Counted from the stretch's first letter, positions 16,018 through 21,050 are shown. The stretch: 64,000 nucleotides of DNA from Escherichia coli (GCF_003018255.1 NZ_CP027440.1), one strand, 5' to 3'. Translations and numbers: made by a program. The notes: generated by a model from the sequence alone, not told the origin.

Positions 16018-17306
16018 AGGGAAAGATCACGCAACGCTGCTTTTTTGTACTAATTAATTCGCATTTTATGTTTAAAAATTGAGATATTCCTCATTACCTA
16101 AAGCTGTTTTTTATTGCTTATACATGATCAAATACTCCTTACATAATTAAGGAGAACAAAATGGAACTTAAAAAATTGATGGAACATATTTCTATTATCC
16201 CCGATTACAGACAAGCCTGGAAAGTGGAACATAAATTGTCGGATATTCTACTGTTGACTATTTGTGCCGTTATTTCTGGTGCAGAAGGCTGGGAAGATAT
16301 AGAGGATTTTGGGGAAACACATCTCGATTTTTTGAAGCAATATGGTGATTTTGAAAATGGTATTCCTGTTCACGATACCATTGCCAGAGTTGTATCCTGT
16401 ATCAGTCCTGCAAAATTTCACGAGTGCTTTATTAACTGGATGCGTGACTGCCATTCTTCAGATGATAAAGACGTTATTGCAATTGATGGAAAAACGCTCC
16501 GGCATTCTTATGACAAGAGTCGCCGCAGGGGAGCGATTCATGTCATTAGTGCGTTCTCAACAATGCACAGTCTGGTCATCGGACAGATCAGGACGGATGA
16601 GAAATCCAATGAGATCACAGCTATCCATGAACTTCTTAACATGCTGGATATTAAAGGAAAAATCATCACAACTGATGCGATGGGTTGCCAGAAAGATATC
16701 GCAGAGAAGATACAAAAACAGGGCGGTGATTATTTATTCGCTGTAAAAGGAAATCAGGGGCGGCTTAATAAAGCCTTTGAGGAAAAATTCCCACTGAAAG
16801 AATTAAATAATCCAGAGCATGACAGTTACGCAATTAGTGAAAAAAGTCACGGCAGAGAAGAAATCCGTCTTCACATTGTTTGCGATGTCCCTGATGAACT
16901 TATTGATTTCATGTTTGAATGGAAAGGTCTGAAGAAATTATGCGTGGCAGTCTCCTTTCGGTCAATAATAGCAGAACAAAAGAAAGAGCCCGAAATGACG
17001 GTCAGATATTATATCAGTTCTGCTGATTTAACCGCAGAGAAGTTCGCCACAGCAATCCGAAACCACTGACACGTGGAGAATAAGCTGCACTGGCGTCTGG
17101 ACGTGGTAATGAATGAAGACGACTGCAAAATAAGAAGAGGAAACGCCGCAGAATTATTTTCAGGGATACGGCACATCGCTATTAATATTTTAACGAATGA
17201 TAATGTATTCAAGGCAGGGTTAAGACGTAAGATGCGAAAAGCAGCCATGGACAGAAACTACCTGGCGTCAGTCCTTGCTGGGAGCGGGCTTTCGTAATCT
17301 TTCCCT
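16018..17306 (+). mobile_element. H-repeat (ISAs1-family) element, copy 1
   Basis: 1289 bp bounded by terminal inverted repeats AGGGAAAGATCACG / CGTAATCTTTCCCT; same length and ends as copies 2 and 3. Confidence 0.8.
16161..17297 (+). pseudogene. H-repeat-associated transposase (ISAs1 family), inactivated by nonsense codon
   Basis: Same 378-codon frame as copies 2 and 3 but TGG to TGA at 17067-17069 (ORFs of 302 and 74 aa). Confidence 0.75.
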
Positions 17307-17349
17307 GGCGTCAGTCCTTGCAAGGAGCGGGCTTTCGTAATCTTTCCCT
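17307..17349 (+). repeat. 43-bp remnant of an H-repeat right end
   Basis: Second copy of the element right terminus (…GGAGCGGGCTTTCGTAATCTTTCCCT), closest to the copy 2 variant. Confidence 0.6.
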
Positions 17350-17769
17350 GGGCGGTATATCATCCAGGACTCGATTGGGCTGAAGGGGGGATGGAATCTG
17401 TACCAATATCCGCTGAATCCAGTGCAACACGTTGATCCATTAGGGCTTAGTACTATGATAATAGGTAACGGCCCCGTTCCTGATAATCCTTTTGGGCATG
17501 CTGCGGCGGCAAATCGATATGGATTAATGAGTTCGGGAACTGGGGATGAGATGGGAGCCTCTGTCTCTGATTATTTTAAAAAGATGCAACCCCGCAGAGA
17601 TACCTGGATTTGGATAATAGATACAACAGATGAAGAAGAACAATGTATGATGAATAAGGCAATAGACCTTAATAAAAAACTAAAAACTATTAACCTCGGG
17701 CCTCTTCCTGTTTTAAATAATTGTTTTAGCCGAACGAACATGATTTTTGAGGCGTGCGGGTTTAACAAC
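17350..17769 (+). pseudogene. orphan Rhs C-terminal toxin module, 5' part (core-end fragment [33 protein letters not shown] plus toxin domain), interrupted by H-repeat copy 2
   Basis: Translation matches the conserved Rhs core terminus then diverges into a unique AT-rich domain; reading frame ends exactly at the IS boundary (…EACGFNN). Confidence 0.6.
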
Positions 17770-19058
17770 AGGGAAAGATCACGTAACGCTGCTTTTTTGT
17801 ACTAAATAATTCGCATTTTATGTTTAAAAATTGAGATATTCCTCATTACCTAAAGCTGTTTTTTATTGCTTATACATGATCAAATACTCCTTACATAATT
17901 AAGGAGAACAAAATGAAACTTAAAAAATTGATGGAACATATTTCTATTATCCCCGATTACAGACAAGCCTGGAAAGTGGAACATAAATTGTCGGATATTC
18001 TACTGTTGACTATTTGTGCCGTTATTTCTGGTGCAGAAGGCTGGGAAGATATAGAGGATTTTGGGGAAACACATCTCGATTTTTTAAAACAATATGGTGA
18101 TTTTGAAAATGGTATTCCTGTTCACGATACCATCGCCAGAGTTGTATCCTGTATCAGTCCTTCAAAATTTCACGAGTGCTTTATTAACTGGATGCGAGAT
18201 TGCCATACTTCAGATGATAAAGACGTTATTGCAATCGATGGAAAAACACTCCGGCATTCTTATGACAGGAGTCGCCGCAGGGGAGCGATTCATGTCATTA
18301 GTGCGTTCTCAACAATGCACAGTCTGGTCATCGGACAGATCAGGACGGATGAGAAATCTAATGAGATTACAGCTATCCCAGAACTTCTTAACATGCTGGA
18401 TATTAAAGGAAAAATCATCACAACTGATGCGATGGGTTGCCAGAAAGATATTGCAGAGAAGATACAAAAACAGGGCGGTGATTATTTATTCGCTGTAAAA
18501 GGAAATCAGGGGCGGCTTAATAAAGCCTTTGAGGAAAAATTCCCACTGAAAGAATTAAATAATCCAGAGCATGACAGTTACGCAATTAGTGAAAAAAGTC
18601 ACGGCAGAGAAGAAATCCGTCTTCACATTGTTTGCGATGTCCCTGATGAACTTATTGATTTCATGTTTGAATGGAAAGGTCTGAAGAAATTATGCGTGGC
18701 AGTCTCCTTTCGGTCAATAATAGCAGAACAAAAGAAAGAGCCCGAAATGACGGTCAGATATTATATCAGTTCTGCTGATTTAACCGCAGAGAAGTTCGCC
18801 ACAGCAATCCGAAACCACTGGCACGTGGAGAATAAGCTGCACTGGCGTCTGGACGTGGTAATGAATGAAGACGACTGCAAAATAAGAAGAGGAAACGCCG
18901 CAGAATTATTTTCAGGGATACGGCACATCGCTATTAATATTTTAACGAATGATAAGGTATTCAAGGCAGGGTTAAGACGTAAGATGCGAAAAGCAGCCAT
19001 GGACAGAAACTACCTGGCGTCAGTCCTTGCAGGGAGCGGGCTTTCGTAATCTTTCCCT
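17770..19058 (+). mobile_element. H-repeat (ISAs1-family) element, copy 2, inserted in orphan toxin gene
   Basis: 1289 bp, same inverted repeats; flanked by 12-bp direct repeat GGGTTTAACAAC (17758-17769 and 19059-19070). Confidence 0.8.
17913..19049 (+). CDS. H-repeat-associated transposase (ISAs1 family), intact
   Basis: 378 aa intact ORF; about 10 aa differences from copies 1 and 3. Confidence 0.8.
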
Positions 19059-19196: not shown

Positions 19197-19595
19197 ATGG
19201 AAATGCTTGGGAAGATATTAGTGATAATTATTTCCATGATAATTATATCTTGTGATTATTATAATGCTGGCATGGACTATCAAGATAATATAGCCCTCGA
19301 GCAAGTCGTAACATGGGATTCTGATAATATATTCACACCTAATATCTTTGAACATAATGGAAGATGTTTTATGAAGAAAAATGAAACATGGATGTTATTA
19401 AATGGAGATGCAACACCAAACATTAGAACAATGAGCAATAAGAAAATAGAATGCCTGGAGAAGAGTGAAGTAGAATGGGCTAGTAGGGTTTGCGACAGTA
19501 TCACAGACAAGGAAAGGGAAAATCTGAAGGCATTAATATGTAGCAAACCAGCTAAATCAGTTAATACAGGCAAAAGACCAGCGTTAGGATATTGA
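19197..19595 (+). CDS. putative orphan immunity protein (exported, possible lipoprotein)
   Basis: 132 aa, AT-rich, hydrophobic N-terminus with IIISC lipobox-like motif; start abuts the orphan toxin stop. Confidence 0.5.
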   Translation: MEMLGKILVIIISMIIISCDYYNAGMDYQDNIALEQVVTWDSDNIFTPNIFEHNGRCFMKKNETWMLLNGDATPNIRTMSNKKIECLEKSEVEWASRVCDSITDKERENLKALICSKPAKSVNTGKRPALGY

Positions 19596-19732
19596 AACCG
19601 GCACTGCACTCTATCACTATTACAATATTCTGAGTGACTAGAGCAACTGCTCCGCCATCCGGGCTAGCAGTATGACGACGAATCCGAACTGCACTACAAC
19701 TGGCACCGGTACTACAATCCGGGACAGGGACT
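19596..19732 (+). repeat. degenerate Rhs core-end remnant
   Basis: Translates in patches to ...ETGTALYHYYN... and ...ESELHYNWHRYYNPGQG, resembling the Rhs core terminus [20 protein letters not shown]; ends at the left inverted repeat of copy 3. Confidence 0.4.
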
Positions 19733-21021
19733 AGGGAAAGATCACGCAACGCTGCTTTTTTGTACTAAATAATTCGCATTTTATGTTTAAAAATTGAGAT
19801 ATTCCTCATTACCTGAAGCTGTTTTTTATTGCTTATACATGATCAAATACTCCTTACATAATTAAGGAGAACAAAATGGAACTTAAAAAATTGATGGAGC
19901 ATATTTCTATTATCCCCGATTACAGACAAGCCTGGAAAGTGGAACATAAATTGTCGGATATTCTACTGTTGACTATTTGTGCCGTTATTTCTGGTGCAGA
20001 AGGCTGGGAAGATATAGAGGATTTTGGGGAAACACATCTCGATTTTTTGAAGCAATATGGTGATTTTGAAAATGGTATTCCTGTTCACGATACCATTGCC
20101 AGAGTTGTATCCTGTATCAGTCCTGCAAAATTTCACGAGTGCTTTATTAACTGGATGCGTGACTGCCATTCTTCAGATGATAAAGACGTTATTGCAATTG
20201 ATGGAAAAACGCTCCGGCATTCTTATGACAAGAGTCGCCGCAGGGGAGCGATTCATGTCATTAGTGCGTTCTCAACAATGCACAGTCTGGTCATCGGACA
20301 GATCAGGACGGATGAGAAATCCAATGAGATCACAGCTATCCATGAACTTCTTAACATGTTGGATATTAAAGGAAAAATTATCACAACTGATGCGATGGGT
20401 TGCCAGAAAGATATCGCAGAGAAGATACAAAAACAGGGCGGTGATTATTTATTCGCTGTAAAAGGAAATCAGGGGCGGCTTAATAAAGCCTTTGAGGAAA
20501 AATTCCCACTGAAAGAATTAAATAATCCAGAGCATGACAGTTACGCAATTAGTGAAAAGAGTCACGGCAGAGAAGAAATCCGTCTTCACATTGTTTGCGA
20601 TGTCCCTGATGAACTTATTGATTTCATGTTTGAATGGAAAGGTCTGAAGAAATTATGCGTGGCAGTCTCCTTTCGGTCAATAATAGCAGAACAAAAGAAA
20701 GAGCCAGAAATGACGGTCAGATATTATATCAGTTCTGCTGATTTAACCGCAGAGAAGTTCGCCACAGCAATCCGAAACCACTGGCACGTGGAGAATAAGC
20801 TGCACTGGCGTCTGGACGTGGTAATGAATGAAGACGACTGCAAAATAAGAAGAGGAAATGCAGCAGAATTATTTTCAGGGATACGGCACATCGCTATTAA
20901 TATTTTAACGAATGATAATGTATTCAAGGCAGGGTTAAGACGTAAGATGCGAAAAGCAGCCATGGACAGAAACTACCTGGCGTCAGTCCTTGCTGGGAGC
21001 GGGCTTTCGTAATCTTTCCCT
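19733..21021 (+). mobile_element. H-repeat (ISAs1-family) element, copy 3
   Basis: 1289 bp, same inverted repeats; nearly identical to copy 1. Confidence 0.8.
19876..21012 (+). CDS. H-repeat-associated transposase (ISAs1 family), intact
   Basis: 378 aa intact ORF. Confidence 0.8.
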
Positions 21022-21050
21022 GGGGGAGCGGGCTTTCGTAGTCTTACCCT
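21022..21050 (+). repeat. 29-bp degenerate remnant of an H-repeat right end
   Basis: GGGGGAGCGGGCTTTCGTAGTCTTACCCT, a decayed copy of the element terminus. Confidence 0.5.

Follow-up and report, generated by a model that had tools for sequence, protein, structure and literature searches.

The 3′ end of a type VI secretion system (T6SS)-linked Rhs locus in Escherichia coli raises the question of how three copies of one insertion sequence (IS), the H-repeat (H-rpt), came to lie among displaced fragments of predicted toxin and immunity genes, and what they may contribute to the gain and loss of those genes. The locus belongs to a 64,000-nucleotide stretch of GCF_003018255.1 (NZ_CP027440.1), referred to here as the window, in which the array occupies about 5 kb between the rhs gene and yafV. 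The best explanation, to which we give a probability of roughly 0.85, is that the 3′ end of this locus gathered three H-rpts between spare toxin/immunity modules and was reshaped by recombination. Three lines of evidence carry it: the identity of copy 2 as a recent insertion, the junctions of copies 1 and 3, and the traces of sequence exchange both within the array and between this locus and a paralogous one.

The copies were found by a repeat search of the window and then compared base by base, with a shared core of 1289 nt used for counting differences. All three are co-oriented, and pairwise alignment, the check proposed in an earlier note on this DNA, shows them to be co-linear and free of gaps. 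Their shared cores lie at 16018-17306, 17770-19058 and 19733-21021, with start-to-start distances of 1752 and 1963 bp between successive copies. A 1.29-kb repeat present three times at about 98% identity or higher puts chance occurrence out of the question. Comparison with H-rptB and H-rptE of strain K-12 places the true termini, CAGGG...CCCTG, one base beyond the shared core on each side, although copy 3 begins with T and not C. The full element therefore measures 1291 bp; the earlier description of three equal-length ISAs1-family elements with inverted repeats was correct, whereas the length of 1289 bp that went with it is that of the shared core. Members of the ISAs1 family have imperfect terminal inverted repeats, one open reading frame (ORF) and, in ISfinder figures, a length of approximately 1.2-1.5 kb. 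The array copies agree with this in size and architecture: the terminal inverted repeats are imperfect, with 26-nt arms that are 81% complementary, and each element has a single ORF of 378 amino acids. This ORF matches the NCBIfam model NF033564 (ISAs1 family transposase) with 413.5 bits against a cutoff of 70, over profile positions 1-314 of 314, and contains the DDE transposase domains PF13808 (DDE_Tnp_1_assoc, E = 1.5e-33) and PF01609 (DDE_Tnp_1, E = 4.2e-30). Identical proteins, including that of copy 3, are named “ISAs1-like element ISEc1 family transposase” by RefSeq/PGAP, and the nucleotide identity of the array copies to K-12 H-rptB and H-rptE is about 96% (46-54 differences per 1291 nt). 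Judged by these features, the elements are ordinary H-rpts (ISEc1) of the ISAs1 family, the RefSeq name and the identity to K-12 serving as proxies for the ISEc1 label. H-rpts, full or partial, are present in 5342 of 5426 complete E. coli genomes, at a median of five places per genome, and at the nine loci where they were inspected their orientation always matches that of the rhs gene.

Copies 1 and 3 are the closest pair, as the earlier note had said, with 10 differences per 1289 nt (99.2% identity), compared with 21 between copies 1 and 2 (98.4%) and 27 between copies 2 and 3 (97.9%). Eight of the differences between copies 1 and 3 fall in the ORF, where seven are synonymous and one is a nonsense change, the two proteins being otherwise identical. 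The nonsense change is the reported TGG-to-TGA substitution at 17067-17069 (W303*), which is seen in copy 1 only and cuts the PF01609 match short by its final 41 residues; copy 1 has lost its transposase by this mutation. The ORF of copy 2 was rightly described as intact, but its specific changes number 18, in 17 codons and not in about 10, with 12 synonymous and six altering an amino acid; its transposase differs from that of copy 3 at six residues. As the differences in the ORF are overwhelmingly synonymous, the transposase gene has been under purifying selection.

Short-read assembly has well-known difficulties with repeats of 1.3 kb, and the best match of the window among complete genomes is only 99.2% identical, so it could be asked whether assembly had multiplied one H-rpt or joined repeats wrongly. 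However, JNE23-011 and JNE112863, two separately assembled complete genomes of different size, hold the same three copies with the same junctions and the same internal stop codon. Because these two independent genomes carry it, the array is genuine, which answers the concern about assembly that the earlier note had raised. The copies, moreover, differ pairwise at 10-27 positions and have six distinct flanks, and in a relative that has two copies the site of copy 2 is found precisely empty, which leaves an artefact of assembly extremely improbable. The window differs from the JNE genomes by a 43-bp remnant of an H-rpt right end, by a cluster of 11 single-nucleotide polymorphisms (SNPs) in copy 2 and by a mosaic stretch in the main Rhs core; only three further SNPs separate them in the array, one in copy 1 and two in copy 3.

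Copy 2 lies within an orphan Rhs tip (hereafter tip2) and, in agreement with the earlier note, is the only copy with a flanking direct repeat, the 10-bp sequence GGTTTAACAA; the duplication of the target on insertion that is expected of the ISAs1 family is thus seen here. Exact empty sites with a single GGTTTAACAA are found in DETEC-S792 and in strain 1190, and removal of copy 2 together with one repeat leaves an open frame identical to the uninterrupted orphan of DETEC-S792. When searched with a 120-nt probe, the empty site occurs in 556 of the 5426 genomes, against two, both of them JNE genomes, in which the contiguous occupied junction is present, and there only at this locus. From position 318 to its end, copy 2 of the JNE genomes differs by a single base from an H-rpt at the yhhJ locus of DETEC-S792, but by 33-39 from its neighbours in the array, copies 1 and 3, which were therefore not its source. 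Copy 2 is a recent simple insertion of the yhhJ-locus H-rpt lineage into tip2, with the sister strain DETEC-S792 pointing to the probable donor lineage; the insertion split the toxin tip and left the immunity gene intact. The yhhJ locus of DETEC-S792 itself has two H-rpts 47 bp apart, the second of which has an internal deletion, whilst the first, the closest relative of copy 2, sits in the middle of a Rhs core fragment, directly after ...IQTVYQPGSFTP.

Copies 1 and 3 have no target duplication at their flanks, and when reciprocal duplications were looked for, between the left of copy 1 and the right of copy 3 and in the other combinations, none was found. Their surroundings can nevertheless be read against those of relatives. 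The left end of copy 1 abuts an IS1 fragment, a junction present in three of the 5426 genomes. In DETEC-S792 its right end meets the Rhs core about 450 bp further upstream than in the JNE genomes and the window, where the contact is made by copy 1 itself or by the 43-bp remnant behind it, so that the junction of the latter corresponds to the DETEC-S792 arrangement minus about 450 bp. At the left of copy 3 stands a stub of a third orphan (...HYNWHRYYNPGQG), and this junction occurs in 157 genomes, the stub itself in 553. At the RhsE locus of AR24.2b the stub is uninterrupted and leads into a third tip, behind which come an immunity gene and an H-rpt; if about 1.1 kb of this DNA, reaching to the left end of the H-rpt, is taken away, the arrangement at the left of copy 3 results. 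To the right of copy 3, strain 1190 has some 80 bp of other DNA followed by a 54-bp relic of an H-rpt, where the window has only a 29-bp relic (about 105 bp less); the exact junction of copy 3 with the 29-bp relic is shared by 18 genomes. The older H-rpt right end adjoining yafV is found in about 2,600 genomes (2,682 query matches, K-12-type included), and the comparison with the K-12 yafF region that had been suggested shows the 29-bp remnant to be the end of the same old H-rpt as yafF. Copy 3 is an old resident copy beside the relic of a still older H-rpt at yafV. Since all three junctions, the right one of copy 1 and both of copy 3, equal the arrangements of relatives minus flanking DNA and lack a target duplication, they look like deletions adjoining an H-rpt end. 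The comparison with AR24.2b, DETEC-S792 and strain 1190 thus supports recombination or deletion, and not fresh insertion, as the origin of these flanks, in line with the earlier proposal that copies 1 and 3 arose or were reshuffled by recombination.

One scheme for these junctions, in which the left junction of copy 3 and the right junction of copy 1 would be the halves of a single insertion, was rejected, because DETEC-S792 has an intact core end upstream of tip2 and yet already has the copy 3 junction. The right-end remnants that had been reported after copies 1 and 3 are both present. The 43-bp remnant, which follows copy 1, is absent from JNE23-011, where the downstream junction is the same, and carries the motif GCAAGG, one step from the GCAGGG of copy 2 and the yhhJ-locus element and two steps from the GCTGGG of copy 1; a fourth insertion, of which it would be the relic, seems to account for it slightly better than local duplication does. 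In O157:H7, the same IS1 fragment at the RhsE locus is followed by two tandem 13-bp stubs of an H-rpt left end (CAGGGAAAGATCA twice) and, after about 200 bp of unrelated DNA, by H-rptE; terminal stubs are accordingly found at left ends as well as at right ends.

Exchange of sequence has left its marks both between the copies and between loci. Window copy 2 and JNE copy 2 differ at 11 positions, all of which lie between element positions 828 and 1023, where the window has the bases of copy 1; window copy 3, in turn, has copy 2-type bases at positions 813 and 828. The confinement of 11 differences to 196 of 1291 bp is incompatible with scattered mutation, and gene conversion between members of the array is the simplest reading. 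On a larger scale, window positions 15000-16016, which comprise the attached tip, dsORF-e4 and the IS1 fragment, are about 100% identical to the RhsE locus of O157:H7, whereas the adjoining core is 84-92% identical. The window core end is 96% identical to that of Rhs1 of strain 1190 at the same locus, and the orphan core of DETEC-S792 is 99% identical to that of Rhs2 of strain 1190. From these identities of cores and tips it follows that an RhsE-type tip module took the place of all the DNA that begins where core 1 ends and stops 450 bp short of the core 2 end. The incoming module of tip, dsORF-e4 and IS1 fragment has copy 1 as its exact right boundary, and the former tip2 was displaced to an orphan. 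The arrangement is a C-terminal displacement of the type described by Jackson et al. 2009 (PMC2935791). The displaced module is itself shared between loci: tip2 is identical not only to the uninterrupted orphan of DETEC-S792 but also to the tip attached to Rhs at the RhsE locus of AR24.2b, where the immunity protein WP_000425544.1 is encoded downstream and the stub follows. About 550 genomes have the target site in tip2, and about as many have the stub; only 157 of them have the left junction of copy 3. In a sample spread over the roughly 400 that have the stub and not this junction, it is annotated at RhsE as in AR24.2b. The main Rhs core is also a mosaic, as positions 13000-15000 of the window are 84-97% identical to JNE23-011 and 100% identical on both sides of this stretch; the JNE core end is nearer to the RhsE core of O157 (94%). 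This suggests a further gene-conversion tract, with an RhsE-type donor.

A sequence of events that would account for the array can be put together as follows. H-rpt would transpose locally and in direct orientation, and homologous (RecA-type) recombination between two copies would then remove the intervening DNA. The product would be a full copy devoid of a target duplication and sometimes accompanied by a short terminal remnant, which would explain the junctions of copies 1 and 3. With H-rpt homology on the right and core homology on the left, tip/immunity cassettes could be lost, or moved between paralogous vgrG-rhs loci such as those at RhsE and yafV. The present array would be an intermediate, in which recombination between copies 1 and 2, 2 and 3, or 1 and 3 would in each case delete a defined part of the orphan modules. 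Several observations weigh against this account or limit it. In a collection that holds only three related genomes, no product of recombination between copies 1 and 2, 2 and 3, or 1 and 3 was found, and the role in deletion or swapping is therefore read from older junctions and not observed. The earlier view of the array as a substrate for deleting or swapping Rhs tips thus still has the standing of an inference, now backed by the conversion tracts and by identical tip modules at two loci with an H-rpt as boundary. The junction of the IS1 fragment with the H-rpt, as it exists at copy 1, was found at no RhsE locus among the 5426 genomes. The origin of the 43-bp remnant is ambiguous, between the relic of a fourth H-rpt and a tandem duplication with two substitutions. 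Finally, transposase-mediated adjacent deletion or illegitimate recombination could give the same junctions. IS-mediated adjacent deletion and IS-IS recombination both keep a full element, lose the target duplication and bring more distant DNA to the flank; the flanks of the array show the same outcome, and either route fits.

Two further explanations assign quite different roles to the element. It might be held that a segment comprising an H-rpt and its flank was duplicated in tandem, with no transposition at all and the elements as inert relics. Copies 1 and 3 are indeed 99.2% identical and lack target duplications, as do the H-rpts of K-12; the published record points the same way, in that transposition of H-rpt has not been observed according to a genome paper (PMC3032704), and a table of ISEc1 flanks shows no duplications (PMC6963479). 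However, one spacer between the copies (418 bp) is unrelated to the other (672 bp), which means that no unit larger than the element itself is repeated, and segmental duplication was rejected on this ground. Copy 2, in addition, has a perfect duplication, exact empty sites and an ancestry at another locus, its 10-bp repeat does not pre-exist at the empty site, and two of the three transposase ORFs are intact with overwhelmingly synonymous differences, which together make a history without transposition very unlikely.

The other explanation goes in the opposite direction and would make the element a driver of the system, its ends being joined preferentially at the Rhs core end (QG/RY in the protein, CAGGG in the DNA), such that H-rpt defines or mobilises tip cassettes, for instance as circles or composite units. 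The core-end pentamer CAGGG is the terminus of the element itself, and, in core coordinates, no more than 10 nt separate three junctions from two loci: the left end of copy 3 (GGACAGGGAC joined to CAGGG), the right end of an H-rpt at the RhsA locus (CCCTG joined to CTGCAGGGGCGG, about 78 genomes) and the right end of copy 1 (CCCTG joined to GGCGG). Of these, the copy 3 and RhsA junctions match what the opposite sides of a single 10-bp target would look like; they may, however, be halves of a single ancient insertion that was spread by recombination. The occurrence of H-rpt in nearly all genomes (5342/5426), always co-oriented with rhs, and the fact that Jackson et al. left open the origin of circular tip intermediates (PMC2935791) would also suit such a role. 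Against it, the target of copy 2 (GGTTTAACAA) lacks the CAGGG motif, and H-rpts are joined elsewhere too, 450 bp into the core, at mid-core positions or in DNA unrelated to Rhs. When one genome per species was scanned for exact matches to the junction of the core end with the H-rpt left end (CAGGGNCYAGGGAAAGATCA), eight were returned, all in unrelated phyla; this is approximately the number expected by chance, and says nothing on target preference. As for a composite transposon, the outer flanks of the pairs formed by copies 1 and 2, 2 and 3, and 1 and 3 share no repeat. A genuine target preference at the core end is hence unlikely, and an element that defines or mobilises cassettes in this manner is rather improbable. 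Only slightly less so, and speculative, is the wider proposition that H-rpt/ISEc1 is the missing generator of portable tip cassettes, with direct copies on either side of a tip/immunity module recombining to release the circular intermediates postulated for C-terminal displacement, ends favouring the CAGGG core end and an active master copy at yhhJ seeding boundaries; if it were true, cassettes would be cut near the core/tip boundary and new boundaries would be seeded continually. At the RhsA/yibA locus of ampC_0069, an orphan with a full H-rpt immediately upstream is followed by a toxin with a tlde1 domain and by an immunity gene of the Imm57 type; on its left, this H-rpt is flanked by a transposase gene which is ISAs1-like but truncated and more divergent, and the arrangement is present in about 78 genomes.

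Returning to the array as a set of H-rpts reshaped by recombination, its genetic surroundings are those of a T6SS island (Table 1). The window opens within a T6SS cluster (tssK to tssB, on the minus strand), which is followed by hcp, vgrG and rhs; behind the main Rhs gene come dsORF-e4, the IS1 fragment, copy 1, the 43-bp remnant, the 5′ part of tip2, copy 2, the 3′ part of tip2, its immunity ORF, the third stub, copy 3, the 29-bp remnant, yafV, ivy and fadE. The same IS1 fragment is present at the RhsE locus in about 1840 genomes. The orphan module is recognisable by a Rhs core end with DPLGL, a variable tip and a small ORF downstream; its start gives partial matches to NF041261 and TIGR03696 over residues 1-32, and the product of the immunity ORF, WP_000425544.1, is found at the matching position in DETEC-S792, JNE23-011 and AR24.2b. 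Neither of the two Rhs toxin tips (15025-15487 and 17450-19196) matches any Pfam family, dsORF-e4 has no match in NCBIfam, and the immunity ORF of tip2 has a sub-threshold chance match only; toxin and immunity functions are presumed for the tips and the ORFs downstream of them from their position.

Table 1. Features of the Rhs locus and the H-rpt array, in window coordinates
Feature	Position	Strand	Remarks
Full-length Rhs (1402 aa), predicted toxin gene; tip module ends at copy 1	11279-15487	+	NCBIfam NF041261 RHS_core, 2723 bits
dsORF-e4, presumed immunity gene of the attached tip	15499-15894	+	RefSeq “RHS element protein dsORF-e4” for the identical gene
IS1 transposase fragment, 99 bp, abutting the left end of copy 1	15917-16015	-	Annotated as incomplete IS1 family transposase in DETEC-S792, JNE23-011 and O157:H7
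H-rpt/ISEc1 copy 1	16017-17307	+	ORF 16161-17297 broken by TGA; no target duplication
43-bp H-rpt right-end remnant	17308-17350	+	2 mismatches to the preceding unit
Orphan Rhs tip (tip2), 5′ part	17351-17768	+	Frame from 17353; core end with DPLGL, then toxin domain (predicted)
Target-site duplication GGTTTAACAA of copy 2	17759-17768 and 19060-19069	.	Perfect 10-bp direct repeat
H-rpt/ISEc1 copy 2	17769-19059	+	ORF 17913-19049 intact, 378 aa; 10-bp target duplication
tip2, 3′ part, including the right copy of the duplication	19060-19196	+	Stop TAA 19194-19196
Presumed tip2 immunity gene, 132 aa, intact	19197-19595	+	Function from position only
Third orphan stub, 94 bp, core end ...DDESELHYNWHRYYNPGQG, cut by copy 3	19638-19731	+	Continues uncut at the AR24.2b RhsE locus
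H-rpt/ISEc1 copy 3	19732-21022	+	ORF 19876-21012 intact, 378 aa; no target duplication
29-bp remnant of an older H-rpt right end	21023-21051	+	3 mismatches; borders yafV
yafV (2-oxoglutaramate amidase)	21082-21861	-	First core-genome gene past the array

Three observations concern other parts of the window. A 14-nt match to the H-rpt terminus with two mismatches, at positions 60-73 on the minus strand in the tssK region, is probably due to chance, as a second such match with two mismatches lies inside vgrG. A single tRNA-Thr (CGT) gene is located at 42140-42215, and behind it the sister genome has a degraded piece of an integrase gene, left over from a hot spot of integration. At 53604-53916, about 0.3 kb of the window is unaligned, compared with about 3.2 kb in DETEC-S792 (genes for a NADH-dependent flavin oxidoreductase and an alpha/beta hydrolase), which amounts to an indel among close relatives.

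The presence of H-rpts in Rhs loci has been known since the early work on K-12, and the kind of feature described here is already known, the array being one more, ordinary example of it. The K-12 elements, for instance yhhI in RhsB and ydcC in RhsE, resemble the array copies in that they are 1291 bp long with termini CAGGG...CCCTG, encode a 378-residue DDE transposase and lie downstream of rhs and co-oriented with it; the K-12 copies, however, have no target duplication, whereas copy 2 of the array has a clean one of 10 bp together with empty sites. Two H-rpts are found in RhsE of K-12. RhsC of K-12 (ybfQ, ybfL, ybfD) is closer still, with three co-oriented H-rpts behind rhs and an orphan, and with partial ends abutting complete copies. 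Its units touch one another, the first being positions 1-380, the second full and the third starting at about position 20 with an internal deletion; in the array, by contrast, all three copies are of full length and interleaved with toxin/immunity DNA, and one clean recent insertion is kept. At the same yafV junction, K-12 yafF is the last 280 bp of the older H-rpt, the final 29 bp of which are the remnant in the window, but K-12 lacks both the T6SS/Rhs island and the three full copies. In the published displacement of Rhs C-termini (Jackson et al. 2009, PMC2935791; Poole et al. 2011, PMC3150448), the attached tip is likewise pushed downstream by a new tip with its immunity gene, and the orphan keeps a piece of core. 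The model put forward there is one of recombination between cores, and H-rpt is not mentioned; the array differs in that the incoming module has an H-rpt precisely at its right edge and that the same modules occur at two loci.

For the element itself, copy 2 provides clean genomic evidence, small but useful, that ISEc1/H-rpt is mobile, given its target duplication and the 556 empty against two occupied sites. For the Rhs systems, three direct copies which trade sequence by conversion, and which bracket an orphan toxin and its immunity gene, would represent an intermediate caught in the act, and the presence of an H-rpt at the edge of a module common to two paralogous vgrG-rhs loci suggests a testable route by which T6SS cassettes may be lost or exchanged.

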